From an uncultured Acidimicrobiales bacterium (GTDB lineage: Bacteria; Actinomycetota; Acidimicrobiia; Acidimicrobiales; SZUA-35), in the NCBI GenBank assembly GCA_963793385.1, contig CAWCAF010000037.1, positions 15,075 through 79,074 of the forward strand: a stretch of DNA of 64,000 nt. Direction: 5' to 3'. The position numbers were made by a program, and so were the translations under genes. Under the pieces are notes generated by a model. That model did not search any database and had not been told where the DNA came from. It saw nothing but the letters and a program-made list of their open reading frames with translations. Every line of letters starts with the position of its first letter. Position 1 is the stretch's first letter. Of this stretch, positions 8,132 through 38,747 are shown in pieces.

Positions 8132-9088
8132 GAGCCGTCTCCCTTGTCCTCTTTTGCCTTCTTGGATCTCTCGAGCAGGGCAGCGGGGATCCCGGCGATG
8201 TCGGCAGCGTCGGTTTCGGCACCGATCGGAGCCGCGGGATGGCTCGGCTGGTGTGGGCTCTTCGGCCACAGGGGCAGCTTCGGGCTCGGGAGCAGCTTCG
8301 GGCTCGGGAGCAGATTCGGCCACGGGGGCAGCTTCGGGCTCGGGAGCAGCTTCGGGCTGTGGTGCTGGGTCGACCTGCGCAGTGGGAGCTTCGGCAACTC
8401 GGGACGGGCTCAGCCTCGCAGCAACCTCGGGAACGGCCGGATTCTCGATCTCGGGCATCGGTTCGACGTCGACGATCCCGGGCCACGGCTTGATGATCCG
8501 GGCCAGCAGGGGGAAGTCCTTGCGCAGGGGATGGCCTTCGAATTCCGACGGGCAGATACAGCGGACGCAGGCCTGGATGGCCGGTGAAGTTGATGCCGAA
8601 CATCTCCCAGGTTTCCCGCTCGTGCCATTCCGCCCCGGGATAGGTGGCGACCCAGGACCCGATCGTCATGTCGTCACCGATGTCCGACTTGAGCGTGAGA
8701 CCGATGTTGGTGGTGAGGTTGAACACCCTGGCCAGGATCTGGAACCGGGTTGCACCGCCGGCCACCCCCGTCACCATCTCGTCGGAGCCTCACCATCGCC
8801 GTTGTCGCCGGGCACGGTGTCGACCACTGCGTCCATCGAACGCCCAAAGGGCGACGGCAGCCAGTCGATGGCGCTGATGAAGTCGAAGAAACGAAACCGC
8901 TGCCGCTCACGGAGGTAGGCGGCGGTGTCGCTCCAGGCTGCGGTGTCGATCCGCACGGTCAGGTCGACGCCGGGTTCGAGGTGATGTTCGACGAGCGAGT
9001 CGCCCAGTTCGGTCCGCACGGCATCGAGGAGCGCGGTGCGGGCGTGGTCGATCGCCGGTTCGACCTGGGTCTCAGCTGACGACGGCAA
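8128..9088 (-). CDS. nuoC: NADH-quinone oxidoreductase subunit C (cluster 1) with a long Pro/Glu/Ala C-terminal tail; frameshifted
   Basis: [36 protein letters not shown] and [10 protein letters not shown] across frames. Tail ends [23 protein letters not shown] at the nuoD start. Confidence 0.88.
8261..8359 (-). repeat. Intragenic tandem repeat (54-bp unit built from 18-bp subunits) encoding [16 protein letters not shown] in the NuoC tail
   Basis: ttcggccac..gggcagcttcgggctcgggagcagcttcgggct occurs at 8261 and 8315. Confidence 0.85.
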
Positions 9089-9575
9089 GAGGATCACCCT
9101 TCCACTTCTGCGCCATGTCCTCGTTCTGGATCAGTTCCTGGAGAAGGACGATTCCCTCGAGCAGTGCCTCTGGGCGCGGAGGGCAACCCGGCACGTACAC
9201 ATCGACCGGGATGATCTGGTCGACACCCTTTGTCACCGAGTAGCTGTCCCAATACGGTCCGCCGCAGTTTGCACACGATCCCATGCTGATCACGTACTTG
9301 GGCTCGGGCATCTGCTCGTACAGCCGGCGCACCGCCGGTGCCATCTTGTCCGTGACCGTTCCCGACACGCACACGAAGTCGGCCTGGCGGGGGCTGGCCG
9401 GCAGCGGGATGACCCCCAGTCGCATGACGTCATAGCGGGGTGATCCGAATGCCGCCCCCATCTCGATGGCACAACACGCCAGACCCCACTGGTAGACCCA
9501 CAGGGAGTACTTGCGGCTCAGGTTCAACAGGGTGGTGAGCGGCTTGGGGATCAACCCCGATTCGACTAGACCCAC
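9072..9575 (-). CDS. nuoB: NADH-quinone oxidoreductase subunit B (cluster 1)
   Basis: [30 protein letters not shown] and [13 protein letters not shown] 9575 follows GAGGTG. Confidence 0.95.
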
Positions 9576-9609
9576 GATGTCACCTCGTCGCGAAGCTGGG
9601 AGTGAGCGT

Positions 9610-9975
9610 TCAGACCCATCGGAGCACACCTTTGCGCCAGGCGTAGGCCAAGCCGAGCGCCAGGATGAAGATGAAGATCGTCATCTCGACCAGACCGAAG
9701 AAACCAAAGGCCTCCAACCTGGCCGCCCACGGGAAGATGAAGACCGCCTCGACGTCGAACATGACGAAGAGCAGGGCGAAGATGTAGTAGCGGATCTGCG
9801 TTTGACCCCAGGCGTCGCCGACGGGATCGACGCCGGATTCGTAGTTCTCGACCTTTCCGACGCTGGGGCGACTGGGCCGGAAGACCGACGCCAGACCCAG
9901 GAACGTGGCGACGAGACCGAAAGCAGCACCACCGAAAATGGCTACCAGCAGGTACTGGCGCAGGAACTCGGACAC
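9610..9975 (-). CDS. nuoA: NADH-quinone oxidoreductase subunit A (cluster 1)
   Basis: YESGVDP and [24 protein letters not shown]. Start placed at GTG 9975 (MSEFLRQY). Confidence 0.95.
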
Positions 9976-9983
9976 GGCCGTAG

Positions 9984-9989
9984 AGCGTA
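9984..9989 (-). promoter_or_regulatory. Putative -10 hexamer TACGCT, leaderless promoter of the cluster-1 nuo operon
   Basis: TANNNT 8 nt upstream of the nuoA GTG, with no SD between. Confidence 0.55.
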
Positions 9990-10203
9990 GCTCCCAGCGG
10001 GGCGCGTACCCAAGATTCGTTGCACACCTGTCGGGTGAGTCGGCTGGCGTGGGTCGATGGCGAAGCTCACCCGAACTAGCGGAGGCCATGTTGGGGTCGC
10101 ACACGGGCCGAGACGTCGCACGTCGCGACGACTCCGCTCACGGGGCGAACATGGGCATTTTGACCCATCCGGGTGACCATCTGAACGTGCCGAAGATCCA
10201 AAG

Positions 10204-11220
10204 GTGAGGTTGTCGAAGCTTGTTCGTACGATCGGCGTCGCCGTTCTGGTGATCACGGGATCGACGCTTCTTCCGATCTCGCACCGCTTCGGCCAGCGCC
10301 GGCTTCTTCGAAGGTTCGGTCGTCCGTGCCCACGACGCCGAGGTGGAGTTGCTCGACACCATCAACCGGCTCCGTGGCGAGGTGTACGGCCTCGACGCGC
10401 TCGACGATCGGGACTGGGGCCAGTTCGAGGACTACCTCGAATGCATCGCCGTGGAAAACGCCGCCAACGCCAGGCTGGCCCACTATCCCGCATCCTGCGA
10501 CCAGGGCGCGGTGGAGGCCGAAATCCTCGCCGCCCGCTACTCGAGCCTGTCGGGGGGAAGTATCAACGCACTCGTCGAGCAGTGGAACGACTCGACCGGA
10601 CACCGCCAGATCATGCTGGCCACCGATGCCGACTACGCCCATGTCGGCGTCTACTGCATCGGCAACACATCCTGGGCGATCGCCTGGATCGGCAGGACCG
10701 ACGGGTACGTCTCACCGAACCGGACACCGCCACAGAACCCGGGACAGCTCGTTCTTCGTCGACGACGACTACCGGTGCCGCGACAGTGCTCCGGTGCCGG
10801 TCAACGACCCGCTGAGCGACTACCAACCGGCCGAGAGCCTCGAGGCCCTCGTCAACCGCTGCCGAGTTCAGTGACCTCGACGCCGATGTGCTGCGCCTCT
10901 ACCGTGCGTTCTTCCAGCGGGACCCCGACATCGACGGCGCCAACTACTGGCTCGAACGGTCGAGACGGGGCTTGTCGATCGACGAGATCAGCTACAGCTT
11001 CGCCGCCAGCGAGGAGTTCGACAACACCTACGGCAGCGTCGACAACCGCCAGTACCTGGAGATCCTCTATGGCAACGTCCACGGCCGAGCCACGGATCCG
11101 GCCGGCGTCGACTACTGGCTGGCCGCCCTGGAGGACGGCCGGCTGAGCCGCGGCGGCGTGGTCCGCTGGATCGCGGCCGGTGAGGAGTTCGAGCGCAACA
11201 ACCCCTATGGCGGGCGCTGA
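10204..11220 (+). CDS. Secreted CAP/SCP-domain protein with C-terminal DUF4214-like domain; frameshifted
   Basis: Signal-peptide-like N-terminus. CAP-like ELLDTINRLR...QWNDSTGHRQIML...HVGV. DUF4214-like RLYRAFFQRDPDIDGANYW...FAASEEF. Confidence 0.72.
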
Positions 11221-11234
11221 TCGGACCGAGCGGC

Positions 11235-12026
11235 TCAGTTGCCGAAGATGGGCGGCACGAACGTCTGGTCCGTGATCGGTGGACGCACGTAGCCCGAGTG
11301 TTTGTTGAGCACGGGCAAGACGATCTCCGGGTGTTCGATCTCGCCGTAGGGAATCTGGGTCAGCAGGTGGCTGATGCAGTTGAGCCTGGCGATCTTCTTG
11401 ACATCGGATTCGACCACCCACCAGGGGGCCTGCTTGATGTCGGTGGCTGCAAACATGGCGTCCTTGGCCATGCTGTACTCGGCCCACCGGCTCCTGGACT
11501 CCAGATCCATCGGCGAGAACTTCCACCGCTTGGTCGGGTCGACCAACCTTCCCTTGAAACGGCGCTCCTGCTCGGCATCGCTCACCGAGAACCAGTATTT
11601 GATGAGGATGATGCCCGACCGGACCAGCATCCGCTCGAACTCCGGACATGACCTCAGGAACTCGCGGTACTCCTCCTCGGTGCAGAATCCCATCACCTTC
11701 TCGACGCCGGCGCGGTTGTACCAGCTCCGGTCGAAGATGACCATCTCGCCGGCGGCGGGGAGCTCGGCGACATAGCGCTGGAAGTACCACTGGGACTTCT
11801 CACGCTCGGTCGGCGCCGGGAGGGCGGCGATACGAACGACCCGAGGGTTCAGAGGTTCCACGATCCGCTTGATCGTCCCACCCTTGCCGGCCGCGTCCCG
11901 ACCTTCGAAGACGGCAACGACCTTGAGCCCCTCCTGGCGGATCCACTCGTGCATCTTGACCAGCTCGAACTGGAGTCGACGCAGTTCCTTCTCGTACACC
12001 TTCTTCGGGATCTTCGTCCTCTGCAT
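11235..12026 (-). CDS. ppk2: Polyphosphate kinase 2
   Basis: [11 protein letters not shown] (Walker A), [12 protein letters not shown] and RWKFSPMD. Start ATG 12026 (MQRTKIPKK). Confidence 0.95.
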
Positions 12027-12073
12027 GGATCCAGAGTGCCCGACTGTTGGCGGCGGTTCAACCGAGCGGTCGT

Positions 12074-13971
12074 TCACCGTGCTGCTGGCCTTGGCGCCAG
12101 GGCCACCGCCGCCAGCGGGGGAATGTCGATCACGAGACTGTGGGGACGACCGTGGGCTCCGTGCCCGTCGGCGGTACAGGTCGAAGCGAGCGCCATCCCG
12201 GATCCTCCGTAGGCCTCGTCGTCGCTGTTGGCGAGGACCTCCCACGTGCCATCGACGGGGACACCGAGGCGGTAGTCCGGACGAGGAATCGGGGTGAGAT
12301 TGAAGACGCACAGGACCGGACGCTCGTCGTCGGCCTGCCGCAACCAGGCCAGGACGCTGTTCTCGCCGTCGTCGACGACGACCCAGCTGAAACCGGCCGG
12401 TTCGTTGTCGGTGACGTGCAGCGACGGCTCGGCGGCATACAGGGTGTTGAGCGCGATGACCCAATCCCTGATGCCGGCGTGCGCGGGCACGCTCAACTGG
12501 CTCCAGGCCACCGGGTGGTCGTGGTTCCACTCGGGACCCTGGCCGAACTCCTGGCCCATGAACAGCAGCTTCTTGCCCAGGACTCAACCATTGGTTGCCG
12601 TAGAGGACGCGGAGGTTGGCGAACTGCTGCCATGCGTCGCCCGCCATCTTGGCCAGTAGTGAGCCCTTGCCGTGGGTCACCTCGTCGTGTGACAACCCCA
12701 GGACGTAGTTCTCGCTGAACGCGTAGACCGAACGAAAGGTGATCTCGTTGTGGTGGAAGCGGCGATGGATGGGGTCCCGCTCCAGGTAGCTGAGGGTGTC
12801 GTGCATCCAGCCCATGTCCCACTTGTAGTGAAAACCCAACCCACCATCTGGCAACGGGACGGGTGACACCGGGAAACGCCGTGCTCTCCTCGGCGACGGT
12901 GATCACCTCCGGAAAGCGTTCCCCGACGGTGGCGTTGAGGTGCTGGAGGAAGCCGATCGCCTCGAGGTTCTCCCGACCGCCGTGGATGTTGGGAATCCAC
13001 TCCCCCTCTTCGCGGGAATAGTCCCTGTAGAGCATCGAGGCGACCGCATCCACGCGGATGCCGTCCACATGGTAGCGATCCATCCAGTAGTGGGCGCTGG
13101 AGGTGAGGAACGCCTTGACCTCGTGCCGACCGAAATTGAAGACATGGCTCTTCCAGTCCGGATGCCACCCCTCCTGGGGATCAGCGTGTTCGTAGAGCGG
13201 GGTCCCGTCGAAGCGGCCAAGGGCGAAGTCGTCAGAGGGAAAGTGACTCGGAACCCAGTCGAGCACGACGCCGATGCCTCGCTGATGGAGGGCGTCGACG
13301 AATCCCATGAAGTCGGTCGGCAGGCCGAACCGGGAGGTGGGAGCAAAGAAACTGGTCGTCTGGTAGCCCCAGCTTCCGTAGAACGGATACTCCATGATCG
13401 GGAGGAGTTCAACGTGGGTGAAACCCATCTCGTTCAGATGGTCGGCCAGCGGTTGGGCGAGCTCGGCCCACGTCAGGCTTCGATAGGCCTCGGCATGGCG
13501 CCACGAGCCCACGTGCATCTCGTACATCGAGATCGCTCGATCGTGGCGCTGCAGCGTGGACCGGTTCCGCATCCATTCGCCGTCACCCCACTCGTAGGAG
13601 AGATCGGTGACGACCGAGGCGGTGTGGGGCGGGAGCTCGGCGGCGAAGGCCAGCGGGTCGGCTCGCTCGACCAGCCGACCCGTCCCTGGTCATGAGCCGG
13701 AACTTGTACCGATCGCCGACCTTGGCATCGGGTACGACGCCGGCCCATATACCGCTCGATCCCTGGGCTTGCAGGGCCTGGTCCCTGTCCGATCCCCACT
13801 GATTGAAGTCCCCGGCGAGCCGAGACGTACGTGGCGTTCGGGGCCCACACGGCGAAATCGCCGCCCGGGGTCGGCGTATCCGGTCAAGGGTTGACAGCCA
13901 AGGATGTCGTACAAGCGCGTGTGGCTGCCCTCGTTGAACATCCACAGATCTGATTCGGCGATGATGGTCAC
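12074..13971 (-). CDS. glgB: 1,4-alpha-glucan branching enzyme; frameshifted
   Basis: [60 protein letters not shown] and MGQEFGQ. Start GTG 13971, 7 nt below TACGCT. Confidence 0.93.
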
Positions 13972-14100
13972 CCGAATGAGCGTAGGCCGCTGCGCCGGAT
14001 CCTGCGAAACCGTCCAGGGCGCCATCCGAGTCACGTCGATTGGATCCCAATCGGGCGAGGTGGCTCAATGCCGGCGGCCCCTGTGCCGATAGTGCATCTG

Positions 14101-14718
14101 ATGGACTCGCTCACCTCCTACACCGTCGTCATCGCGATGCCCGACCCGGGCGCCGCCGTGGCGCTTCGCCAGATCGTGCAGCGACATCCGCGTTTCGACG
14201 TGATGCGCGAGGTGCCGAACGCGGTGATGGCCCTCGAGGCCTGCCGCGTCCTTCGTCCTGATCTGGCGATCGTGGGCGACGATTCGCCCGGTCTGCGCGG
14301 ACGCGACGTCGTCGACGAAATCCGCCGCGAGAGCCCCTGGACCCGCGTCATCCTCGTGGCGACGTACGACGCGAACTACCTCCGCGACGTGGAACAGGTG
14401 TATCTGGCGGTATCGATCGGCAATCCCGAGCTCATCGAGTCGGGACTCGATTCGTTGGCCGAAGCACTCGACAACCCCGAGGTCGCCAAACGACCCGAGC
14501 GGAGGAGAACGACCCGACGGCTCAAACAGGACTGGACCAAGGTGTTCGCAGAGCGTCGAGCGGAGGGCCGGCGCAACGAAAACGAAGAGGTCGGCTACGC
14601 GAGAGCCGGGACCGGCTGGACCCTCGGAACCCGGACGACCGGAGAATCTACACGGAGCGCCGATGCGCCCAGGACCAGGTCGTACGGCTCGCCGACGTGT
14701 ACGTATCCTGGTCGGTGA
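14101..14718 (+). CDS. Atypical (pseudo-)receiver domain protein with Arg-rich tail; 3' end uncertain
   Basis: REC-like pattern YTVVIA...EACRVLRPDLAIVGDDSPGLRGRDVVDEIRRESPWTRVILV. The canonical acidic pocket is altered. Confidence 0.65.
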   Translation: MDSLTSYTVVIAMPDPGAAVALRQIVQRHPRFDVMREVPNAVMALEACRVLRPDLAIVGDDSPGLRGRDVVDEIRRESPWTRVILVATYDANYLRDVEQVYLAVSIGNPELIESGLDSLAEALDNPEVAKRPERRRTTRRLKQDWTKVFAERRAEGRRNENEEVGYARAGTGWTLGTRTTGESTRSADAPRTRSYGSPTCTYPGR

Positions 14719-15838
14719 TGTCCCCGCCCCTGTTCTCGCCGGGCAATCGTCCCAAGGTCGTTCTCGCCCCGATGGCAGGGTCACCAATGCACCGTTCCGG
14801 CGCCTTTGTCGTCGCTACGGTGGCGGGCTCTTCGTCGGAGAGATGGTTTCGGCGCGGGCGGTCGTCGAAGGCAATCCCAAGACCATGAAGCTCACCGAGT
14901 TCGCCGGCGATGAGACACCTCGGAGTCTTCAGCTCGTTGCGGTCGATCCGGTCGTTGTCGCCGAAGCCATCCGTCGACTGATCGACACGGTCGGAGTCGA
15001 CCACGTCGACCTGAACTTCGGCTGCCCGGTCCCCAAGGTGACGCGCAACGGTGGCGGAGCTGCACTGCCGTACAAACGCAAGCTGCTGAGAGCCGTGGTC
15101 GGTGCGGCGGTCATCGCCGCCGGCGAGGTGCCGGTGACGATCAAGTTCAGGGTCGGCATCGACGACGACCACACGACCCACCTGGACACCGGGACGTGCT
15201 GCTGCGGAACTCGGGGTCGCAGCCATGGCACTCCACGGTCGGACGGCGGCCCAGCTGTACAGCGGCGACGCCGATTGGGCGACCGATCGGCGAGCTGCGT
15301 TCGGTCGTACCAGCGGAGATTCCCGTGTACGGCAACGGTGACATCTGGGAGGCCGGAGACGCTCTGGCGATGGTGCGCCAGACCGGGTGCGACGGGGTGG
15401 TGGTCGGCCGCGGCTGTCTCGGCCGCCCCTGGATGTTCGCTCACCTCGACGCCGTGTTCGCCGGTCAGCCCATCCCCGCGTTTCCCCGCAGTGGCGACGT
15501 CGCGGCGATAATGGCCGAACACGCCAAGGAGCTGGCCGCATGGTTCGGCGACCACAAGGGCGTGCGCGAATTCCGCAAGCACACCGCCTGGTACCTGAAG
15601 GGGTACCCGGTCGGCGGCGAGATCCGCGGCCGCCTCGGTCGTATCGATTCACTCGATGAACTCGACGACCTGCTCGCTGAGCTGCCCGATGTCGAGCCTG
15701 CCCCACGAGAACCGGCGGGTGGCCAGGGGCCACACCCGAGGACCGCAGGCGGTCGCCCTCCCGGATCGTTGGCTCGACGACCCGTGGGACGATCTCGTCG
15801 CCGATCCCGCCGGGGACTCGGCCGTCTCGGGAGGCTGA
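14718..15838 (+). CDS. dusB: tRNA-dihydrouridine synthase (DusB family); frameshifted
   Basis: VVLAPMAG(V)TNAPFRRLC, DLNFGCPVPKV..GGGAAL, PVTIKFR, VYGNGDI, VVVGRGCLGRPW and FRKHTAWYLKG. Confidence 0.92.
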
Positions 15839-15934
15839 GGCGGCCCTGGCCCCCATTGGCCGAGCCTGGAACCACACGGCCAGCCGCCGCAGCCATTCCT
15901 CGGTGATGCCGGTGGGCTTGCCCGAATCGGCTTC

Positions 15935-21789: not shown

Positions 21790-21828
21790 TAGTTCTCAAC
21801 CCTCCCCTGCGATCACGACGGGGCAACG

Positions 21829-28919: not shown

Positions 28920-28935
28920 GGTGCACCTCGGCCAC

Positions 28936-30276
28936 TCATCTGTCGACCTCCCCCATGATCGGGTCGACGCTGGAGATCGATGCGACCGCGTCGGCGACGA
29001 GACCGTCGGCCATCTTGTGGGGCAGGCATTGCAGGTTCACCAGGCTGGGGGCCCGGATGTGCATCCGGTACGGCGTCGGCGATCCATCGCTGACCAGGTA
29101 GCAGCCGAGTTCACCACGGGGCGATTCGACGGCGACGTACACCTCCCCCTCGGGCACTTTGAAGCCCTCGGTGAAGATCTTGAAGTGATGGATCAACGCC
29201 TCCATGGACTCGTCGATCCGGGCTCGCGGCGGCGGGGTCACCTTGGTGTCTTGAACCCGGTAATCGCCCGACGGCATCTTGTCCAGGATCTGCCGAACGA
29301 TCCTCATCGACTCACGAATCTCGTTGAGGCGGATGGCGTAGCAGTCGTAGGAGTCACCACAGGTCCCGACCAGAACGTCGAAGTCGACTTCGTCGTAGGC
29401 CAGGTACGGCTCGTCGCGTCGGATGTCACGTGCGATGCCGGTCGACCGCAGCAGCGGCCCGGTCACCGAGAGGGCGAGCGCCTCGTCGGCTGCGAGAACG
29501 CCGACGCCCTGCAGACGCTCCCGCCAGATCGGTTGGCCACTCATTAGGATGTCGTATTCAGCGAGCCGAGGCGGGAGCATGTCGAGCAGAAACAGCACAT
29601 CATCGCGCCAGCCGTCGGGAAGGTCGGCAGCCACACCACCGGGGCGGATGTAGTTGTGATTCATTCTCAGGCCGGTCACCTTCTCGAGGAACCTCAGCAC
29701 CTGTTCGCGTTCTCGCCACCCGTAGATCATCATGGACACTGCGCCGAGATCCATGCCATTGGTGGCCATGAACAACAGATGCGAGGCGATGCGGTTGATC
29801 TCGCTCATCAGCATTCGAATCCATGTGGCTCGCGGTGGGATGTCGACCTCGAGAAGCTTCTCGGTGGCGAGCGAGAAGACCAGCTCGTTGAACAGCGGTG
29901 AGGCGTAGTCCATCCGGGTCACGTTGGTGCCGCCCTGAAGAAAGGTCAGTGACTCCCCCGTCTTCTCCATTCCTGTATGGAGGTACCCGATAACCGGTTT
30001 GGACCGACGCACGGTTTCGCCGTCCATTTCCAACATCAGCCGGAGCACACCGTGGGTACTCGGGTGTGAGGGCCCCATGTTGACGAGCATCGTCTGTTCG
30101 TTTTCGTCGTCCAGTGGGGCATCCGCCAACTCCGCCGCCTGGACTTCGCTCATTCGAAGCACCGCATGCCTGCGGGGAAGACGATCGAGTTGACCACCTT
30201 CAGGGTCCGGCGTCCTGGTGGCGTGGACGATCGGCGATGCCTCATCGGATTCGATTTGTTCGGGGGTGACGGTCAT
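28936..30276 (-). CDS. nuoD: NADH-quinone oxidoreductase subunit D (cluster 2)
   Basis: NMGPSHPSTHGVLRL, GYLHTGMEK, TRMDY, ESPRGELG and MGEVDR. Confidence 0.96.
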   Translation of the reverse strand: MTVTPEQIESDEASPIVHATRTPDPEGGQLDRLPRRHAVLRMSEVQAAELADAPLDDENEQTMLVNMGPSHPSTHGVLRLMLEMDGETVRRSKPVIGYLHTGMEKTGESLTFLQGGTNVTRMDYASPLFNELVFSLATEKLLEVDIPPRATWIRMLMSEINRIASHLLFMATNGMDLGAVSMMIYGWREREQVLRFLEKVTGLRMNHNYIRPGGVAADLPDGWRDDVLFLLDMLPPRLAEYDILMSGQPIWRERLQGVGVLAADEALALSVTGPLLRSTGIARDIRRDEPYLAYDEVDFDVLVGTCGDSYDCYAIRLNEIRESMRIVRQILDKMPSGDYRVQDTKVTPPPRARIDESMEALIHHFKIFTEGFKVPEGEVYVAVESPRGELGCYLVSDGSPTPYRMHIRAPSLVNLQCLPHKMADGLVADAVASISSVDPIMGEVDR

Positions 30277-30800
30277 CGTTGTCCACCTCCTTGTGGGGCC
30301 TTGAACTGCACCGGGATGACCCCTTGGGCAAAGTCCTTGCGCAAGGGATGGCCGACCCAATCCTCGGGCATCAGGATACGACTGAGATCCGGGTGGCCTT
30401 CGAACACGATGCCGAACATGTCGAAGGTCTCGCGTTCCTGATAGTCACAGCCGGGGTAGATCGCGTAGAGCGAATCGATCCGCGGATCTGCGGCCGGCAC
30501 CTGGGCCCGCATGCGAATCCGCTCACCGGTGTCGAAACGGACGAACGACGCCACTACCTCGTACCTCCCGGGCGTCACACCCGCCGGCAGCTGTCGGGCC
30601 GGCTCGTAGGTGAGGAAATCGACCGCGGTGAGATCGGTGATCATCGTCCAGTTGTCAGCGAAGAGTGCCTCGGCGGTGGACCGCCAAGATTCGCGATCGG
30701 GGTGCAGCACCTGCTGGCCACGGCTGTGGGTCAGTGGTGCGCCGTAGCGGGTCGATGACTCCTCGTCGATCTGCGCATCGGTGTCGATGGCGTCGGTCAT
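30273..30800 (-). CDS. nuoC: NADH-quinone oxidoreductase subunit C (cluster 2)
   Basis: DLTAVD and [35 protein letters not shown]. Confidence 0.96.
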
Positions 30801-31384
30801 CGGCCCCGCCGCCCGATCGTCACCAGCTCCGACGCCCCCTGGCCGTCGAGTTGTTCGACGGTGATCCCGCCCACACCGGCCTTGCGGCGACGGAGCAGCT
30901 CACCGTTCTCAATGCTCTGATGCAGCGTATTGATGGCGTGCAGCAGCGTCTCGGGACCCGGCGGGCAGCCCGGCGCGTAGACGTCGACCGGAACGACCTG
31001 ATCGACACCTTGGACGATCGCGTAGTTGTTGAACATGCCGCCGCTTGATGCGCACACACCCATCGAGATCACCCACTTGGGCTCGGCCATCTGGTCGTAG
31101 ATCTGCCGAAGGACCGGGGCCATCTTCTGGCTCACCCGTCCGGCGACGATCATCACATCGGCCTGTCGAGGCGACGCCCGGAAGACCTCCATCCCCAGGC
31201 GGGCCATGTCGTAGTGCGACCCTCCGGTTGCCATCATCTCGATCGCGCAGCACGCCAGGCCGAAGGTGGCGGGCCACAACGATCGAGCCCTGCTCCAGTT
31301 GACCAGTTTCTCGAGCGGGGCGGTGAGCACGTTGTGGTCCAGGCCTTCGATCCCGTGGTCCTGGACCTCCCTGATGACGCCCAT
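30797..31384 (-). CDS. nuoB: NADH-quinone oxidoreductase subunit B (cluster 2)
   Basis: [35 protein letters not shown] and PGCPPGPE. Confidence 0.96.
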
Positions 31385-31915
31385 CAGTGCTCTCCCCCGG
31401 CCATCGCCGGTTCCAGGTCAGCGACCGGACTCTCAGCGAGACCATCGGCGGCCATTGGGCCGAGCCGGCCCTCGGTTCCGACCCGTCGAACGGTCGATGC
31501 CGACGTTGCGTTGGGGATCGATCGCGGTGTCGGCCGCCGAGCGATACGAGGTGACCTGAAGCGGTCCCCAGTCCAGCGCACCCTTGGAGATGAGGTACAC
31601 GAAACTCTCGAACACCAGGGCCGAGAAGACGACGATGGCGATCAATCCGAATCGACCGAGCGCCTCCTGGGTGACCGCATACGGGTAGAGGAAGATGATC
31701 TCGATGTCGAAGATCACGAACATCATCGCCACTAGATAGAAGCGAACCGGGAAACGTTGCGGAGGTTCTCGACCGGGGATGATGCCGCACTCGTACGGTG
31801 CCATCTTCTCCCGGGTCGGCCGGCGGGGCGCCAGGAGTCGCGAGGCGGTGAAACTCCCGGCGGCGAAAACGATACCCAGGACCAACAGCGCCAGAACAGG
31901 TAGGTACTGACTCAT
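31384..31915 (-). CDS. nuoA: NADH-quinone oxidoreductase subunit A (cluster 2) with C-terminal extension; probable frameshift in the tail
   Basis: [21 protein letters not shown] and KGALDW; GAGGAG RBS. The shifted-frame stop overlaps the nuoB ATG at 31384. Confidence 0.93.
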
Positions 31916-31948
31916 CGGTTCGACTCCTCGGTGACGTTGGCGTGGGTT

Positions 31949-32866
31949 CTAGGTTGCAGCTGCTCGGATTGCCATCTCCCGACGATCACGGATGTGCATC
32001 AAATAGACACAGATAGCGAAGAGAATGGCGTTGAAGATCGTAAACGCAAGCGGCACGAATCGCGTGCCACTGATGATCCAGGGGATCGGACCACCACGGT
32101 CACGGGCCACGACAGCGGTGACGACCGGTGCGTTCTCGTCGACGATCGGGATCGGCGGCGCCTGCCCGGGCAGGGTCGGCTGTGGTTGCACCGCCTGCAC
32201 TTGGATGGCCACCAGCTCCTCGCCGTGCCACGGGACGAGAATCGACTCGGCCTTCTTGACGAACCGTTCGACGACGCTGTCCCCGGTTTCGCCGGCCGGT
32301 TTGCCACCGTAGGCAAACCCACCGAATTGCAGCGGGATGTACTCGGTCGGGGCCTCGAAGACCCCTTCCTCGATCAGGAATTCTTCCGCCGACGATTGGG
32401 CATCGCCGCGGCGGGAGCTCGATGTGATGAGGTACTCCCATCCAGCGAGTCGATCAGAATTATCGTCGGCGAAAGACTGTGCATTCACTTGGCGCTGATC
32501 GGCATCCTCGCCCTGCACGCCGGAGAAGAAATCGTTCTGGGGGCCGAGTGCGCTACCCAGGTCGGCCACATTCGGGTCCTCGGCGAACTCGAGGTCACCG
32601 GTGTTGATCTCATCGAGCTCCCATGATTGGGCCTCGCCGACCCAGCCGATCCCGTAGACGGTCCAGACGATGCCCATGAGCATCATCCAGCCGAACAGGG
32701 CGGACGCAGCGATCAAGCCGCCGGTCCGGGAACCGGAATTGGTGGCGACGATCAGGTAGGTGCCGCCGATCATCACGACGACGCCGACCAGAACCGACAG
32801 GAGCCCTCGGAAGAAGATGTTGAAGTCGAGGCCGCCGATGAAGGCGACGATGGCTACCGAACTCAT
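31949..32866 (-). CDS. Hypothetical membrane protein (two N-terminal TM helices, acidic soluble domain, C-terminal TM), last gene of the Rieske/cyt b cluster
   Basis: Intact 305-aa ORF with an ATGA overlap to the upstream cytochrome c gene and a clear hydrophobicity pattern. Confidence 0.8.
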   Translation of the reverse strand: MSSVAIVAFIGGLDFNIFFRGLLSVLVGVVVMIGGTYLIVATNSGSRTGGLIAASALFGWMMLMGIVWTVYGIGWVGEAQSWELDEINTGDLEFAEDPNVADLGSALGPQNDFFSGVQGEDADQRQVNAQSFADDNSDRLAGWEYLITSSSRRGDAQSSAEEFLIEEGVFEAPTEYIPLQFGGFAYGGKPAGETGDSVVERFVKKAESILVPWHGEELVAIQVQAVQPQPTLPGQAPPIPIVDENAPVVTAVVARDRGGPIPWIISGTRFVPLAFTIFNAILFAICVYLMHIRDRREMAIRAAAT

Positions 32867-34434
32867 CGCTGCTCGATCCCTTCACGCTCGTAGTCCACCA
32901 CGGCCTGGATGAGGTCTGGCGGGAGTAGCTTTCCGAACCCGGGCATCATGCCGGCGCCGCTGAGGCCGCCACGACCGTAGCCCTCGCCGGCATTGGCACC
33001 GTTGACGATGAACTCGTAGTGAGACTTGCTCGTTCGGTCGGGCATGGCGATGACCGTGCAACCGGCCCCCAACCGTCCATCGGTCAGCCTGATCGTCTCG
33101 CCGGCAAACTCGCCGGAGAGATCGCCGATCGTCAACTCGGGTGGATCGACGAAACCATCGGTCACCCGCTCGACCTCACCTTCGGCGGCAAGCACGAGGG
33201 GTACACGCGGGTCGAATGGATACGCGTCGGCCGGGATTCCGCCCGGTTCCCACAGATCGCTGTAGTAGAGGCAATCGGCGAGATCGCCACCCTCGACGAT
33301 GCTGTACTCCAGGAGTTCTCCGCTCGCATCGGTCCTGGCGGTGACCGGGTTCCCCCGGTCGTCGAGAGGAATCTCGGTGCCGTTCATAGCCAGGACGAAA
33401 TCGACCCCCTCGCCCAGCGATGGATCGAGCCATTCACCGTCGGGACGTTTCCACGTGTCATCGGGGAAACGCTCCCTGATCCCACCACAGAGGCTGAAAC
33501 CGATGCCACTGGGACTGCCACCGCCGCATGCGGCAACCCCTTCGTCGAGGATCCCGGGCACGGTGGCGACACCGAGCGACCATCCGGCGGTGTGGCAACG
33601 ACCGCAGCTGAGCGAACCGGCCTGATAGCCGCTGAAGAGACCGAGGTTGAACACCGCTTCACCGACCGAATCGAACTCACCGTCGTCGATGGACCGCTGA
33701 ACTTCTTCCCGAATGCTCGCCGTGACGGTGTCGGCTTCCTCCTGGGCGGCGACGGACTCGGCGTCGAAGAAGTCGAGTTCGTCACCGGCCGCTTGGATAT
33801 CGAGAGGATCGAGGCTCTGGACCTGGAACGTGTCGAGATAGGCGATGAGGTACTCGATCTGCTGTGTGGTGAGCGGACCGCCGCCGGGTGTACCCCACGC
33901 GGCCATCGGTGACCCGGGCCTGCCGTAATTCAGTACGTAGGTCACCTCTTCGGCGCTGTAACGGTGCAGGACGTTGTTCAGCGCTGGCGCCACCCAGGAG
34001 GCATTGGCCAGGAACTGACCATCGGCGTCCTGATAGACGTAGGCGGCGACACCGCCGACGCCAGCGCCACCGTGGCAGTTCACGCATTGGGCACCACCGG
34101 TGTAGAGGTTGGCGCCGCGACGGACGAAGGTCTCCTCCTTGACCTCGAGAGCCCCATCCTGCCGTCCCGGTTCGGCGAGCCAGTAGAAAGGAAGGATCAC
34201 TGCGGTGATGGTGAGAATCCCGAGGGCGAAGGTCAACGAGCGATCGAGTTTGGTGGTCTCGAGTTCCTCGTCGGAGAGGTAGGGGGCACGGTTGGCCGCC
34301 AGCTCGACTTCGGAGCCGAGTTCGTCCTTGGCGGTGAAGACGTTCCGTAGGAACAGTGCAACGAACGCGATGAAGACCACGGTGGCCGTGATCAGACCTA
34401 TGGCTCGGAAATCGGCTGCGAACAACAGGGTCAT
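32863..34434 (-). CDS. Membrane-anchored diheme c-type cytochrome
   Basis: Two CxxCH motifs (CVNCH, CGRCH), candidate Met ligands (GSPMAAW, GMMPGF) and two N-terminal TM helices. Confidence 0.88.
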   Translation of the reverse strand: MTLLFAADFRAIGLITATVVFIAFVALFLRNVFTAKDELGSEVELAANRAPYLSDEELETTKLDRSLTFALGILTITAVILPFYWLAEPGRQDGALEVKEETFVRRGANLYTGGAQCVNCHGGAGVGGVAAYVYQDADGQFLANASWVAPALNNVLHRYSAEEVTYVLNYGRPGSPMAAWGTPGGGPLTTQQIEYLIAYLDTFQVQSLDPLDIQAAGDELDFFDAESVAAQEEADTVTASIREEVQRSIDDGEFDSVGEAVFNLGLFSGYQAGSLSCGRCHTAGWSLGVATVPGILDEGVAACGGGSPSGIGFSLCGGIRERFPDDTWKRPDGEWLDPSLGEGVDFVLAMNGTEIPLDDRGNPVTARTDASGELLEYSIVEGGDLADCLYYSDLWEPGGIPADAYPFDPRVPLVLAAEGEVERVTDGFVDPPELTIGDLSGEFAGETIRLTDGRLGAGCTVIAMPDRTSKSHYEFIVNGANAGEGYGRGGLSGAGMMPGFGKLLPPDLIQAVVDYEREGIEQR

Positions 34435-35304
34435 GAGTGCTCCTCAGCTCCGCTGATGCAGTTCGGACCCTCGGCTTCCTGACCGGTTGTGTTGGTTCCG
34501 ATCGGCGGACCCTGGATGACCGTGCCGGTGTCGACGATCAGTTCGTTGCTCGCACTCACCTCCATCGGGAAGCGATCCATACCTCGGGGCGCCGGCCCAC
34601 CCTTCTTCTCTCCGACCCGGTTGTACTGGGACCCGTGGCAGGGACACTCGAACCATTGCGACGTCAAGCACTCCGGGACGCGGCACCCGAGGTGCGGGCA
34701 GGTCTGGTACAGCGCCGTGACGCCTGCTGCCAGGCCCTGTTCGACCTGGCCGAAGAAGCCGTACTGCGTCCTCGCTTTCTCCAGCGCTGCCGCGGGGTAC
34801 TCGGCGACCCACATCCGACCCTCGGGAACGTAGAGGAATCCACCACCGGCGATGATGCCAGCCCTGATATCCGGAAGGCGTCCCGACCGTGACCTTGGAG
34901 CCGAACCCGCTGACTCCCTGAGGCCAAAGGAATCCGATGGATGCCGCCCCGAACGCCGTGATACCAAGGCCGAACATGGCAAAGATCCCACGGTTCAGGA
35001 ACTGGCGGCGTGCGACGCCGACGGTCTCGGGGTCCGGCGGCACATACGGCACGGGGGGTTTGGTGTCGGCAGCCACCAGCGCCGCCCTGCCCCTCGCCGA
35101 TCCGAGGGCCTCCAGCTCCGAACCGGTAGCCGGCGCACTCGTGTCGACATCCGGCGTCGGCACCGTGACGGGTCGATCCCGCTTGACGGTTTCGCCGGAG
35201 AGCTGTCCGATGGCGGTCGTGGTGTCACGATTGCGAAGGGCCAGGCCCAGCGACGCCACAGCCAGCACGGCTACGACGATTGCTCCGATGATGATGGGAT
35301 CCAT
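34431..35304 (-). CDS. petC: Rieske iron-sulfur subunit of the Rieske/cytochrome b complex; frameshift near 34880
   Basis: CPHLGC and CPCHGSQY boxes, GPAPRGMDRF and an internal twin-arginine RRQFL-TM segment. Confidence 0.92.
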
Positions 35305-35317
35305 AGCTAGCTCCTTC

Positions 35318-36076
35318 CTAGAGCTCGAAGAACAGGCCGTCAGCCCACGGGAAAATGAAGTTGAATCCGGGGCCCCGGAAGAACGATCCGATCAAGACCA
35401 GAACCGCCCAGAACATCATGAAGATCGTGAAGATCGACACTGCAAACTTCCGGTCCTCGGGGCGGTTCGAGGGGTTCTTGTCGATGAATGGTGCGAGGAT
35501 CAGGACGATCAGCCCGATCCCGGGGATGGTCACACCGGCCACCATCGGGTGAAACATCGTGAGGAGTTCTTGTAGGCCGAGGAAGTACCACGGCGCTTTG
35601 GAGGGGTTCGGCGTCTGGTTCACGTTGGCCAGCTCGAGAAGCGGAGCGTTGACGAAGATCGAGAAGATCGTCAGGAACGCCGTGCAGAACAACGCGGCGC
35701 CGAACTCCACGACGATCAGGTGAGGCCACGTGTGGACCTTGTCCTGCGGCTTCATCTTGATGTCCTGAATCGAGCCGCTCTTCACCACGGTCAAAAGACG
35801 CTGGGTGTGGCCCTGAGGTCCTGACATCACCGGTAATCCACCCGTCACAGCGGCGGCTGCGACGGCGGTTGCCGCCGGTGCGACAGCGGTGGTGGTCCCG
35901 CCACCGCTGTCCTTGGACTTAGCGCTCTTGGAACGCTCGAGGAGGTGAGCGGGAATCTTGGACTCGCCTGCTGAACCGCCCGACGACGCCGGCGCGTCAT
36001 CACCGGAGGGCGAGGACTCGGCCTTCTTCTTCGCCTCGCTTGCCCGCTTGCGTAGATGCTCTGGAATCTCGGTCAT
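35318..36076 (-). CDS. petD: Cytochrome b C-terminal subunit (subunit IV/PetD-like) with low-complexity N-terminal extension
   Basis: TWPHLI, APLLELAN..TPNPSKAPWYFLGLQELL, PFIDKNPS..PEDRK and three TM helices. Confidence 0.88.
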   Translation of the reverse strand: MTEIPEHLRKRASEAKKKAESSPSGDDAPASSGGSAGESKIPAHLLERSKSAKSKDSGGGTTTAVAPAATAVAAAAVTGGLPVMSGPQGHTQRLLTVVKSGSIQDIKMKPQDKVHTWPHLIVVEFGAALFCTAFLTIFSIFVNAPLLELANVNQTPNPSKAPWYFLGLQELLTMFHPMVAGVTIPGIGLIVLILAPFIDKNPSNRPEDRKFAVSIFTIFMMFWAVLVLIGSFFRGPGFNFIFPWADGLFFEL

Positions 36077-36091
36077 CAGGGTGTCCCTTCT

Positions 36092-36883
36092 CTACAGCGG
36101 TCCGGAGATGCCGCCGTCCTTGCGCACCCGCCAGAAGTGGATCGCAAGGAAGATGACGGTGACGAATGGAAGGAGGAGGACGTGCAGCACGTACCAACGC
36201 AACAGCGTTTCACGGCCGATCACAGAACCGCCCAGGAGCACGAACCGGACCTCGTTGCCGAACACCGGCGTGTAGCCCATCATGTTTGTGCCGACGGTCA
36301 CAGCCCACAGCGCCAGCTGGTCCCAGGGAAGCAGGTAGCCGGTGAAGGACAGCAGGAGGGTGAACTGCAAGAGCATCACCCCGATCACCCAGTTGAACTC
36401 ACGAGGAGGTTTGTAAGCGCCGTGGTAGAAGACGCGGGCCATGTGGAGGAAGACCGACAGCACCATGAGGTGAGCACCCCACCGATGCATGTTCCGCACC
36501 AGGAGACCGAACGTGACCCCGGTCTGGAGGGTGGAGATGTCCTCCCACGCCGCGGCCGCGGTTGGGCGATAGAAGAACATCAAGAAGATGCCAGTGATCG
36601 TGAGGATGATGAACAGGAAGAAGCTGAGCCCGCCGAGGCACAGCGTGTAGCTCACCTTCACCGCATGTCGTTTCACCTTCACCGGGTGCAGGTGGTAGAG
36701 CACGCTGTTCATGATCACGTAGCTGCGGTTTCGAGGGCTGTCCGTGTAGCCCTTGCGGAAAACCGAACCGGGCCGGAAGATCGAGTTCCACGCCTGGCTC
36801 CCCTGGACCGCGCTCGTGGTCTGGCTTGCGAGATCACCCGCTCTCTCGGCGAGTGTGGGCTTGTCTTGGATCGATTTCGCCAT
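36092..36883 (-). CDS. petB: Cytochrome b6-like N-terminal subunit
   Basis: YTLCLGG, heme His pairs in HRWGAHLMVLSVFLH and LHVLLLPFVTVIFLAIH, GYLLPWDQLALWA, and C-terminal RKDGGISGPL. Confidence 0.93.
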   Translation of the reverse strand: MAKSIQDKPTLAERAGDLASQTTSAVQGSQAWNSIFRPGSVFRKGYTDSPRNRSYVIMNSVLYHLHPVKVKRHAVKVSYTLCLGGLSFFLFIILTITGIFLMFFYRPTAAAAWEDISTLQTGVTFGLLVRNMHRWGAHLMVLSVFLHMARVFYHGAYKPPREFNWVIGVMLLQFTLLLSFTGYLLPWDQLALWAVTVGTNMMGYTPVFGNEVRFVLLGGSVIGRETLLRWYVLHVLLLPFVTVIFLAIHFWRVRKDGGISGPL

Positions 36884-36918
36884 TGTTCGTTGGGACCTTC
36901 TCGTCAGGGATTTCTGGT

Positions 36919-37335
36919 TCAGGCGAGGCGCATGCCGTAGCCGTAGCCGTGGGAATTGGTTCGCTGGTTGTAATCGCCGTAGGGCGAAGGATCACTGATC
37001 TTTCCGAGGATGATGACACCGGTCGGGCACCGGTCGACGCACAGCGCACATCGGGTGCAAACATCGTCGTCGATGGTGAAGATGAATGCATCATTGGGGT
37101 CATCACCCGGTTTGACCGTTCCAAATGCTTCGGCGACAGCGCCGGTGGGCTGCATGTGGATGCACTTCCACGGGCAGATGTCGACACAACCCTCGCAGGC
37201 GATGCACTCGGACTGATCGATGTGGATGAACTGTTTGGGTTTGACGGCGCGAGCCAGATAGTCGGCATCGACCTCGACGAGCACGTAGTCATCGCGAAAG
37301 TCCGGAAGCGGCGGGTTGGCGTCCTGGAAACCCAT
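36919..37335 (-). CDS. 2x[4Fe-4S] ferredoxin-like protein
   Basis: CIACEGCVDICP and CTRCALCVDRCP; no signal peptide. Confidence 0.92.
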   Translation of the reverse strand: MGFQDANPPLPDFRDDYVLVEVDADYLARAVKPKQFIHIDQSECIACEGCVDICPWKCIHMQPTGAVAEAFGTVKPGDDPNDAFIFTIDDDVCTRCALCVDRCPTGVIILGKISDPSPYGDYNQRTNSHGYGYGMRLA

Positions 37336-37342
37336 CGATCCT

Positions 37343-37786
37343 TCAGCCCCGCTTCACCAGGGGTCGGCCGTAGCTGGAGGTCGGCACCACGTCGCTGCCC
37401 TTCTTGGCCTGACCACGGTTCTGCCAGTCGATGAACATCTTGACCATGATGCCAAGGCCGATGATATAGATGATCGCCGCGACGCTGTCCGAGACGGCGC
37501 GCAAGGTGATGTCGAACGGGAACCATCCGCCCTGGCTCTGGGGGACCATCAGGCCCCAGGCGTCGAAGATCCGGTCGGCCCGGAAACTCCATTCGTTCTC
37601 GGCGACGGTCAACCACTGATGGGGAACGACGCCGAAGATCATGAAGGTGAGGAAGAAGATGTACACCGAGCCGATCATCGCCTCGCCCCAGGTGACGGGA
37701 GTGCCGGTGGGACGGCGGGCGGCGTAGAGATACACCAGGCCCGCCAGGAAGATCGTGACGATGGTGGATGTTATGAGTGCAACCAT
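37343..37786 (-). CDS. Hypothetical three-TM membrane protein
   Basis: 147-aa ORF with GAGG RBS and three hydrophobic segments, 7 bp from the ferredoxin gene. Confidence 0.8.
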   Translation of the reverse strand: MVALITSTIVTIFLAGLVYLYAARRPTGTPVTWGEAMIGSVYIFFLTFMIFGVVPHQWLTVAENEWSFRADRIFDAWGLMVPQSQGGWFPFDITLRAVSDSVAAIIYIIGLGIMVKMFIDWQNRGQAKKGSDVVPTSSYGRPLVKRG

Positions 37787-37818
37787 GCGCTACCTCGACG
37801 ATTCGTGTCTCGTCGACA

Positions 37819-37848
37819 ATTCTAGAGACTTTGTGAATCTATGCACAA
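37819..37848 (-). promoter_or_regulatory. Putative SigA-type promoter (-35 TTGTGC, 18 bp spacer, -10 TAGAAT) overlapped by a Rex/CRP-like palindrome
   Basis: 37831-37848 reads TTGTGAA-TCTA-TGCACAA, one mismatch to the Rex consensus TTGTGAA-N4-TTCACAA. The minus-strand TAGAAT is at 37824-37819. Confidence 0.72.
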
Positions 37849-37885
37849 GCTATCGGATTGGGTGGTCGGGTGGAGAAATCGTAGG

Positions 37886-38740
37886 TCACTCGCTGGCGAC
37901 CTCTTCTGAGTCGGCGTGCGGACCCGGGCAGCTCTCCGGGTCCTCGGGGGCACCGGTGGCGCCCGGCGTGTACAGCGGATCGGCGCACGCCAGGAGGAAC
38001 TCGAGGTCGATCGGGCGGTCGGGGAGGACGCCCTCGGCCACTTCGCGCATGTGTTCCATCCACTCCTGGTAGGCCGGATCTGTGGTGTCTTCGCCACCGA
38101 GGGTCGCCCGCTCGTGGAACACGATCAGCTCGAGTTCGTTCTGTGTGATACCCGGATAGTTCGGCATCACGCCACGATTGCCGGCGACCCGTGCACCACC
38201 GGCACGATCCGGATCGCCGTACTGTTCACCGGTGATCGCAGCAGACCCCCGAGCGATGTGGACGATCTGATCGATCGGCGAGGGGAAGGTGGCATAGATC
38301 TCACCGTTGGAGAACTGGTAGCCGACGCCGCCACCACCGCCGACCCCGTGGCAACCCGCACACCCCTGCGAGCTGTACAACGCTGCCGATTCGATGAACA
38401 GGGGATCCTCGACCTCGGGCTGTTGCATCGTGCCGGCGAAGCTGTACGCCCAGAGAAGGGTCAAGGCCGGAATCGCCATCGCCCACATCGGCATCTTCTT
38501 GCGCTTCTTAGCCGCCTGCACGTAGGCCGGTTCCGGTTTCGGCGGTTCGGGGTCGGGGTCCCGCGGGACGACCGCGGCCGCCTCCCGGATCGCCGGCGGC
38601 TCGGCAGGTCCCGCCGCCTGGGCCGGAGCAACCGCGGTGCCCGGCTCCTTTGCCGCCTCACCTCCACCGTCGCCATCGGCGGGCTTCTTGCCGCGACGGG
38701 AAGCGGACCGCTTGAGCAGATGCTCGGGGATCTCAGTCAC
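37886..38740 (-). CDS. Membrane-anchored monoheme cytochrome c with cytoplasmic low-complexity N-terminus
   Basis: KKRKK followed by a TM helix (MPMWAMAIPALTLLWAYSF), then CAGCH and GVMPNY. Confidence 0.88.
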   Translation of the reverse strand: MTEIPEHLLKRSASRRGKKPADGDGGGEAAKEPGTAVAPAQAAGPAEPPAIREAAAVVPRDPDPEPPKPEPAYVQAAKKRKKMPMWAMAIPALTLLWAYSFAGTMQQPEVEDPLFIESAALYSSQGCAGCHGVGGGGGVGYQFSNGEIYATFPSPIDQIVHIARGSAAITGEQYGDPDRAGGARVAGNRGVMPNYPGITQNELELIVFHERATLGGEDTTDPAYQEWMEHMREVAEGVLPDRPIDLEFLLACADPLYTPGATGAPEDPESCPGPHADSEEVASE

Positions 38741-38747
38741 GGCCGAG

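Follow-up and report, generated by a model that had tools for sequence, protein, structure and literature searches.

How can respiratory proteins of unrelated families come to carry the same short basic peptide on their flexible tails? The question is raised by a stretch of 64,000 nucleotides from an uncultured Acidimicrobiales bacterium (assembly GCA_963793385.1, contig CAWCAF010000037.1, positions 15,075 to 79,074; this whole stretch is called the window here), in which a peptide with the consensus I-P-x-x-L-L-x-R-S, followed by basic residues, occurs once at the N-terminus of a cytochrome c, twice in subunit IV of a cytochrome b6c-type complex, and once at the C-terminus of NuoC of a complex I whose operon lacks nuoE, nuoF and nuoG (EFG-less complex I). 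An original prediction, made from the letters alone, had placed these four copies on the minus strand, and translation and profile searches found all of them at their places. The motif belongs to a module whose existence, selection and modularity in position and copy number are shown by the results below, as is its range of hosts. As for its function, we give even chances to the reading that it is a tethered docking module, which would co-localise respiratory enzymes. The four tags and the linker of cytochrome c are the following, with E-values (E) from a profile search and helices from AlphaFold2 (AF2) predictions.

38684 to 38731, minus strand: cytochrome c tag, residues 4-19 at the extreme N-terminus, motif residues 4-12 (translation; profile E 4.8e-9)
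38492 to 38683, minus strand: cytochrome c linker, residues 20-83, Pro/Ala/Gly/Glu-rich, preceding the membrane anchor
36020 to 36067, minus strand: subunit IV tag 1, residues 4-19, motif residues 4-12 (profile E 5.1e-9; predicted helix 6-20)
35909 to 35956, minus strand: subunit IV tag 2, residues 41-56, motif residues 41-49 (profile E 2.1e-9; predicted helix 44-55)
8143 to 8190, minus strand: C-terminal tag of NuoC of the EFG-less complex I, in the open reading frame (ORF) 8128-8397, Ile codon at 8190 (profile E 5.7e-7)

In translation, cytochrome c starts after its GTG with TEIPEHLLKRSASRRGKK and subunit IV starts with MTEIPEHLRKRASEAKKKAESSPSGDDAPASSGGSAGESKIPAHLLERSKSAKSKD; the last nuoC frame ends with [21 protein letters not shown], and its stop codon (8128-8130) overlaps the ATG of nuoD. 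Can such a short string be a product of chance, or of low complexity? The genome from which the window comes (2.64 Mb in 38 contigs, 55.7% complete) has 44 sites for a loose regular expression in six frames, of which the tight consensus I-P-[EA]-[HA]-L-[LR]-[KE]-R-[SA] fits only four; these are the only copies in this 2.6-Mb genome, all within the window and all on the minus strand. A profile made from an alignment of 50 motif instances with 21 columns (A1) finds the same four at E 2.1e-9 to 5.7e-7, the next matches standing at E 0.2 and 1.0. A degenerate DNA pattern hit 74 sites in 41 related genomes versus 2 for the reversed control, and 140 of the 301 genomes of the window's class versus 4 control matches. 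Chance and low complexity are ruled out as origins of the motif by the regular expression, these controls and the genome-wide profile scan. It is to be noted that the genome yields no further profile matches in unrelated low-complexity tails, and that NuoC of the complete complex I (operon 2, 30273-30800) has no tag, the latter as the original prediction had noted.

The flanking sequences behave quite differently from the tags themselves. Residues 20-75 of cytochrome c contain 14 Ala, 13 Pro, 6 Glu and 6 Gly with a net charge of -6, and in the AF2 model of subunit IV the linkers 23-42 and 57-92 have predicted local-distance difference test scores (pLDDT) below 50, in keeping with the claim that the tags sit on disordered linkers, while the helices 6-20 and 44-55 begin directly after each Pro. 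All 120 of the best 120 subunit IV homologues, out of 8000 scored, carry the motif, with two copies in each of those listed, 69-100% identical, and the linkers between the copies vary in both length and sequence. In an alignment of subunit IV (A4) the tags are as conserved as the membrane core: the majority-residue fraction reaches 0.89 and 0.83 in the tags, equals 0.89 in the core and falls to 0.39 and 0.60 in the linkers. Such a conserved island amid fast-evolving disordered sequence is what defines a short linear motif or a mini-domain. The 124 distinct DNA sequences of the motif have a mean entropy of 0.63 bits at the first codon position, 0.34 at the second and 1.59 at the third; since third positions vary freely, selection acts on the peptide and not on a DNA or RNA element, and a DNA-level repeat or regulatory site is ruled out for the same reason.

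The motif had been taken for a free-standing basic peptide, and this view has to be abandoned. Subunit IV and a 2-oxoacid:ferredoxin oxidoreductase from other orders of the class have in common a conserved stretch of about 35 residues (alignment A3), in which the motif helix is followed by a Gly, a short turn and a second helix. The motif is thus the core of a helical module, which in its full form has 35-45 residues, and judging from these alignments the tag in the window's lineage is a module reduced to about 16-20 residues. A search with A3 of 1.84 billion cluster representatives gave 249 proteins at E <= 0.001 and 123 at E <= 1e-10. The best 150 comprise 15 subunit IV-like proteins and 10 cytochromes c, both assigned by a simple motif rule, 67 fragments and 58 'other' proteins, the last being, by eye, mostly truncated or frameshifted tails. 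The copy number per tail is 1-7, and some of these 150 proteins carry arrays of 2-7 modules spaced by Pro/Ala-rich linkers. In 85 internal copies an extra Ala-rich helix stands ahead of the motif, and their best-conserved columns, G-[MI]-P-E-x-L-L-x-R-S-A-x-A-R-A-K-A-x-G, are the very motif first noticed in the window.

Is this module a known family under another name? As had been supposed, no Pfam or NCBIfam model matches it above cut-off. With Pfam-A, seven modules of 45-49 residues gave no family or only E >= 0.1, and eight array proteins gave matches of their host domains and sub-threshold matches, with no passing stretch; NCBIfam has no model for the module, PDB sequences searched by profile yielded no match, and a named-cluster search of the Atlas gave no usable one. 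The motif strings were not found anywhere in the literature text searched, nor was anything that pairs Acidimicrobiia or Acidimicrobiales with cytochrome b6/subunit IV or with bc, menaquinol, supercomplex or Rieske; the text of PMC5600118 has nothing relevant on Actinobacteria, ferredoxin-like or 4Fe-4S proteins, or an N-terminal extension. From the Pfam, NCBIfam, PDB and literature searches, the sequence family of the module appears to be undescribed.

Its distribution is sharply bounded. Of the 251 genomes of the class with a completeness of 90% or more, A1 matched 211, a tally including the unpublished genomes G249 and G290 with one match each, on which no other claim rests. In an even sample of the phylum it matched 19 of 21 other genomes of the class and 0 of 279 of other classes; A3 matched 16 of 301 genomes, all within the class, and homologues are labelled by source as Acidimicrobiales or Actinomycetota. 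Ten profile-negative genomes were examined. Seven gave no split subunit IV with the query used; in all five of these that were checked for cytochrome b, this protein is long and unsplit (open frames of 506-780 residues). In the remaining three, subunit IV is split and its tag has diverged. Therefore, the module travels with the split b6c complex: it is restricted to the window's class and coupled to this complex. In the smallest genomes of the class, of about 1 Mb, it is kept on subunit IV, which argues against a dispensable decoration.

Which proteins carry the module? Profile scans gave an inventory of 1-5 sites per genome, always in the same host families, and the initial view of three proteins only proved too narrow, as relatives add FixO/CcoO, an oxidoreductase alpha subunit, a polytopic membrane protein and two small soluble proteins to the list.

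Subunit IV: tag N-terminal, 1-2 copies
Membrane-anchored cytochrome c: tag N-terminal
FixO/CcoO: tag N-terminal (PF02433, 35.3 bits, above cut-off)
Alpha subunit of 2-oxoacid:ferredoxin oxidoreductase (KorA-like; POR, POR_N, PFOR_II): tag N-terminal, in one genome of about 1.1 Mb
Polytopic membrane protein of about 390 residues, no family: one N-terminal module (L118-L121)
NuoC: tag C-terminal, in 14 of the 120 best homologues
Small protein of about 130 residues, no family: tag C-terminal, 100 of 103 homologues ending in I-P-x-x-L-L-E-R-S-R-A-A-K-A-R-L-L-G
Soluble protein with a weak Nfu_N-like region (E 0.03-0.1): tag C-terminal (L083 and L085; P0347 and P0348)

The same element thus occurs in unrelated hosts (PF00032, PF00034, PF02433, PF00329, POR/POR_N and three families without a Pfam model), and every host of a recognised family is, by its Pfam matches, a respiratory or electron-transfer protein, as the original prediction would have it. 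Its placement is free: N-terminal in subunit IV, cytochrome c, FixO/CcoO, the KorA-like and the polytopic protein, internal in second copies and arrays, and C-terminal in NuoC, the small protein of about 130 residues (SH3-like, as described below) and the Nfu_N-like protein. By the established topology of the hosts, all tag positions are cytoplasmic: the N-terminus of PetD lies on the n-side of the membrane, haem c domains face the periplasm, and both NuoC and KorA reside in the cytoplasm.

Some of these hosts deserve a few words. Neither of the two small soluble families has a Pfam or NCBIfam model. For the protein of about 130 residues (P0123 family; L033 3026-3427) AF2 predicts an SH3-like barrel followed by a long helix, then a disordered stretch and finally a terminal helix (mean pLDDT 82.7); here as in subunit IV the tags are modelled as helices without any strand. 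Foldseek of the barrel against the PDB gave no match at E <= 0.001, the top ones being ribosomal KOW/SH3 and PWWP at E about 1e-2. At 15 loci its conserved neighbours are, by eye, glutaminyl-cyclase-like and acyl-ACP-desaturase-like genes, with no respiratory link. No tblastn match to it was found in the window's own genome, which at 55.7% completeness does not imply absence. The gene for the polytopic protein of about 390 residues is found outside the b6c operon region in four genomes belonging to other orders. At another locus, L036 (1215-4061), the tagged cytochrome c lies directly downstream of a 665-residue protein, by eye a fused CcoN/CcoO-type oxidase, so that there it may belong to the oxidase rather than to b6c. 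Short metagenome proteins in which the module is joined to an ATP synthase delta-like end, a CorC-like domain or a partial short-chain dehydrogenase were set aside as probably chimeric or adapter-contaminated: the ends of P0459, P0467, P0469, P0478, P0430 and others we take to be translated sequencing adapters, and some share a common N-terminus followed by unrelated domains, which makes chimeric contigs likely.

The copy on NuoC requires care, as the gene in the window is broken.

8128 to 9097, minus strand: nuoC of the EFG-less operon, with three 1-nt frame changes near 8779-8786, 8545-8550 and 8236-8240 (PF00329)

Its Pro/Ala/Glu-rich tail spans about 8190 to 8470, and the tag comes into frame only after three 1-nt corrections. 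The intact orthologue P0235, which itself ends in the tag, aligns with the window by tblastn in four pieces, in frames -1, -3, -1 and -2, and in a genome of the same genus (L031/P0226) nuoC is one open frame of 324 residues that also ends in the tag. Public contigs of four runs, which are 90-99% alike, belong to relatives that need not be the same strain and leave part of the gene (8328-8409) uncovered, differ from the window by single-base indels at just these break points: all 4 runs have an extra base behind 8779, 2 runs lack a base at 8550, and in one run two contigs lack a base at 8236 or 8240. On this comparison the breaks look like indel errors, and going by their gene sequences a tagged intact NuoC does exist in close relatives. 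Thus, what had been claimed for the NuoC tail is borne out by orthologues, while the gene in the window itself is broken by three frame changes. The Rieske gene (34431-35304), nuoH (5414-6962) and nuoL (2070-4314) are split as well, which fits an indel-rich assembly in which ORF calls need care. Findings that the original prediction had regarded as fatal to itself did not appear: the motif is conserved, it is not in unrelated tails, and NuoC orthologues end in it. Its proposal that the tag may link the b6-type complex to the EFG-less complex I has fared worse. The narrow occurrence among NuoC homologues (14 of 120) marks this copy, as far as such counts tell, as a recent and narrow acquisition, and joining the two complexes therefore cannot be the primary role; moreover, subunit IV is the sole host in many genomes (each of the 35 genomes of family f31 has a single match). 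Among the 106 untagged NuoC homologues in P0239-P0346, 65 end in an acidic motif, Ser/Thr-x-x-N-P-E-D-x-x, which may be a second tail signal.

What, then, could the module do on so many tails? As a docking device, the motif would be the conserved first helix of a small helical module that has been added, via long disordered Pro/Ala/Glu-rich linkers, to cytoplasm-facing termini of many respiratory proteins. Each tag would fold as a basic helix directly after the invariant Pro and bind one common partner, namely another tag in homotypic pairing or a multivalent hub. By such contacts the b6c complex, its cytochrome c and its oxidase partners would be held together on the cytoplasmic face of the membrane, and in some lineages the EFG-less complex I and 2-oxoacid:ferredoxin oxidoreductase might be gathered there too, along with small soluble clients. 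Within the docking reading, a hypothetical hub is the somewhat likelier partner, and pairing of tags with each other the somewhat less likely one. Ribbon-helix-helix folds are obligate dimers, and the weak resemblance of the module to them keeps pairing alive, but the short form has no second helix and its tags are net basic (+2 to +5), which disfavours simple pairing. Arrays on disordered linkers, by analogy with the motif arrays of carboxysomes and pyrenoids, would rather favour a multivalent partner. A bolder version, which we consider doubtful, is a class-specific 'velcro', in which the tags pair, possibly as ribbon-helix-helix-like dimers, or meet at one hub to form a respirasome scaffolded from the cytoplasmic side, with b6c subunit IV, the membrane-anchored cytochrome c, FixO/CcoO, the ferredoxin-dependent complex I and 2-oxoacid:ferredoxin oxidoreductase as members. 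If this were true, the path from 2-oxoacid oxidation to oxygen reduction would be tethered by disordered tails instead of rigid membrane contacts, and the copy number (1-7) would set the valency.

Several points weigh against docking besides the charge of the tags. The partner is hypothetical, and that the tag binds anything, and what, is something we infer. Since subunit IV is so often the sole host, linking different complexes cannot have been the ancestral role; two of the hosts are small soluble proteins in non-respiratory gene neighbourhoods; and the last helix of the full module has been lost in the window's lineage, so that any mechanism depending on the fold must tolerate this loss.

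It is therefore necessary to ask what else a basic helix on a tail might bind. The idea of the original prediction that it is an arm for ferredoxin capture, raising the local concentration of an acidic ferredoxin, either that of the operon or a soluble one, we now hold improbable. It does suit several plausibly ferredoxin-linked hosts, such as the EFG-less complex I and the alpha subunit of 2-oxoacid:ferredoxin oxidoreductase, the b6c operon always carries an acidic ferredoxin (isoelectric point (pI) 4.4; 60 fetched loci), and arrays of tags would make a good antenna. However, it fits three hosts and leaves out cytochrome c and FixO/CcoO, which are both common hosts and for which we know of no ferredoxin chemistry; the operon ferredoxin is conserved like a fixed subunit, which would need no capture; and the invariance of Ile-Pro, Leu-Leu and Arg-Ser speaks for stereospecific recognition and not for simple charge attraction. 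Co-folding of this ferredoxin (alignment A5, 34 rows) with residues 1-62 of subunit IV (A4) gave an ipSAE of 0.00 in both runs, which, having no controls, weighs neither way. Might the tag instead be a handle for biogenesis or quality control, read by a dedicated factor of the respiratory complexes, be it an assembly factor, a chaperone, an insertase or a protease adaptor? Terminal placement on flexible linkers is what known adaptor and degron peptides show, the hosts of recognised families are all subunits of multi-subunit redox enzymes, and the tag is strictly coupled to one type of complex. Even so, we think this quite unlikely, because a targeting or degradation signal would not usually come in arrays of up to seven copies, nor at the C-terminus of small soluble proteins, and the tagged subunit IV and NuoC have no cofactor that needs cytoplasmic insertion.

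Two further possibilities concern partners other than proteins. Module-bearing proteins repeatedly match DNA-binding folds weakly: AbiEi_4 (19.3 bits, cut-off 25; E 0.0012), CopG_antitoxin (15.4 bits, cut-off 28; E 0.032), a FitA-like ribbon-helix-helix family (12.9 bits, cut-off 27; E 0.11), BrnA antitoxin (17.4 bits, cut-off 60; E 0.0037) and an Xre-like helix-turn-helix (E 0.018). With the net basic charge, the invariant Arg-Ser pair and the arrays, this would agree with a degenerate ribbon-helix-helix or helix-turn-helix-like unit that ties respiratory complexes to nucleic acid or another polyanion. All of these matches are below the curated cut-off, though, and no single matched stretch passes; the profile search of PDB sequences found no such protein; the acidic residues before the Pro in N-terminal copies (Thr-Glu or Val-Asp) suit a DNA-reading ribbon poorly; and the short form has dispensed with the last helix, so that the chances of polyanion binding seem to us small. 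Smallest of all is the probability that the tag is an amphipathic helix pinning the tails and soluble clients to anionic lipids at the membrane surface. A linker with a terminal basic helix on soluble proteins does resemble the targeting sequences of the MinD/FtsA type, and AF2 predicts helices, but all five tags studied have a low hydrophobic moment (0.15-0.42) and a negative mean hydrophobicity (-0.23 to -0.55), failing the usual measure of an amphipathic helix; they have no aromatic residue, and the main hosts are already integral membrane proteins.

Is anything comparable to a tethered docking module found in other systems? NdhS of cyanobacterial and chloroplast NDH-1 is an SH3-fold subunit of an EFG-less complex I, whose flexible basic C-terminal tail helps to dock ferredoxin. 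Here, similarly, one host is a small SH3-like barrel with a C-terminal tag and another is NuoC of an EFG-less complex I, but the tag is a defined motif on many unrelated hosts, including b6c and oxidase subunits, no sequence relation was seen, no test being aimed at it, and the Foldseek matches of the barrel (E about 1e-2) are generic KOW/SH3/PWWP ones. Encapsulation peptides of microcompartments, cargo-loading peptides of encapsulins and the Rubisco-binding motif of the pyrenoid are common targeting peptides that organise multi-enzyme bodies. They share with the module a short helix or motif, a poorly conserved flexible linker, placement at either terminus or in tandem, and occurrence on several proteins of one pathway, in the pyrenoid even on membrane-anchored ones; they differ in that the hub here is hypothetical, and encapsulation is excluded because the main hosts are integral respiratory membrane proteins. 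The E2 chains of 2-oxoacid dehydrogenases have peripheral subunit-binding and lipoyl domains, and the former is likewise a very small basic helical domain on Ala/Pro-rich linkers, serving there purely as a docking site on a swinging arm. However, its family PF02817 (E3_binding) is absent from the Pfam scans of module-bearing proteins, which reached E 10 with single modules and E 0.1 with array proteins, and the hosts differ.

Closer to the main host, the N-terminus of PetD in the chloroplast cytochrome b6f complex is reported to be linked to the STT7 kinase (PMC13287000). In both systems the N-terminus of subunit IV on the n-side (there the stroma) would have a regulatory or docking role of its own, whereas the chloroplast tail is short and has no common module, and a kinase link is not indicated here. 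The bcc-aa3 supercomplex of actinobacteria offers another parallel, in which members of the same phylum offset the lack of a soluble cytochrome c by joining complexes III and IV; its contacts are made by membrane and periplasmic domains with the dihaem QcrC, whereas here the complex is of the split b6c type and the candidate link is cytoplasmic tails.

How respiratory complexes meet and stay close is a long-standing question of bioenergetics. Known bacterial supercomplexes rely on membrane and periplasmic contacts, and although docking elements common to many proteins of a pathway have analogues elsewhere, we know of none in prokaryotic respiratory chains. A portable module common to b6c, a cbb3-type oxidase, cytochrome c, complex I and a ferredoxin-reducing dehydrogenase would, if docking is its role, be a different principle, nearer to the common targeting motifs of carboxysomes and pyrenoids. 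For annotation it provides a new domain family with 249 cluster representatives (E <= 0.001), and marks several 'hypothetical' proteins as likely associates of the respiratory chain. So short and well delimited an element would allow the idea to be tested directly with peptides.

The genes around the tagged proteins of the b6c-type operon in the window are arranged as follows.

37886 to 38740, minus strand: monohaem membrane-anchored cytochrome c, 284 residues, GTG start (PF00034, 23.6 bits, above cut-off)
37343 to 37786, minus strand: membrane protein of 147 residues, no family
36919 to 37335, minus strand: 2x[4Fe-4S] ferredoxin, 138 residues, pI 4.4 (Fer4 families), a candidate partner only
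36092 to 36883, minus strand: cytochrome b6 (PF00033, E 2.4e-45)
35318 to 36076, minus strand: b6c subunit IV, PetD-like, 252 residues (PF00032), residues 1-90 being the cytoplasmic tail
34431 to 35304, minus strand: Rieske protein, split over two frames (-2 and -3 by tblastn with the Rieske protein of L036), with CPHLGC and CPCHGS boxes
32863 to 34434, minus strand: dihaem cytochrome c

Downstream of this operon starts operon 2, the complete complex I including nuoF and nuoG. The other nuo operon has the order nuoA (9610-10104)-B-C-D-H-I-J/K-L-M without E, F or G, which agrees with its original description as EFG-less. The acidic ferredoxin adjoins subunit IV in the 60 fetched loci with 48-100% identity. 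Every b6c operon seen in the class has two extra genes directly upstream of cytochrome b6, one for an acidic 2x[4Fe-4S] ferredoxin of about 135-150 residues and one for a small membrane protein of no family (seen in the window and in L036); in L036 they lie at 7259-8064, and there are 59 other loci besides. It is uncommon for a Rieske/cytochrome b complex to have a ferredoxin-like subunit. The interval 10852-13572, which separates the EFG-less nuo operon from the genes beyond it, contains an ORF for a PPK2 polyphosphate kinase and an alpha-amylase-like fragment in overlapping frames. Upstream of cytochrome c, 38733-41159 is a long ORF with one fibronectin type III match, whose frame overlaps other ORFs and may be broken.

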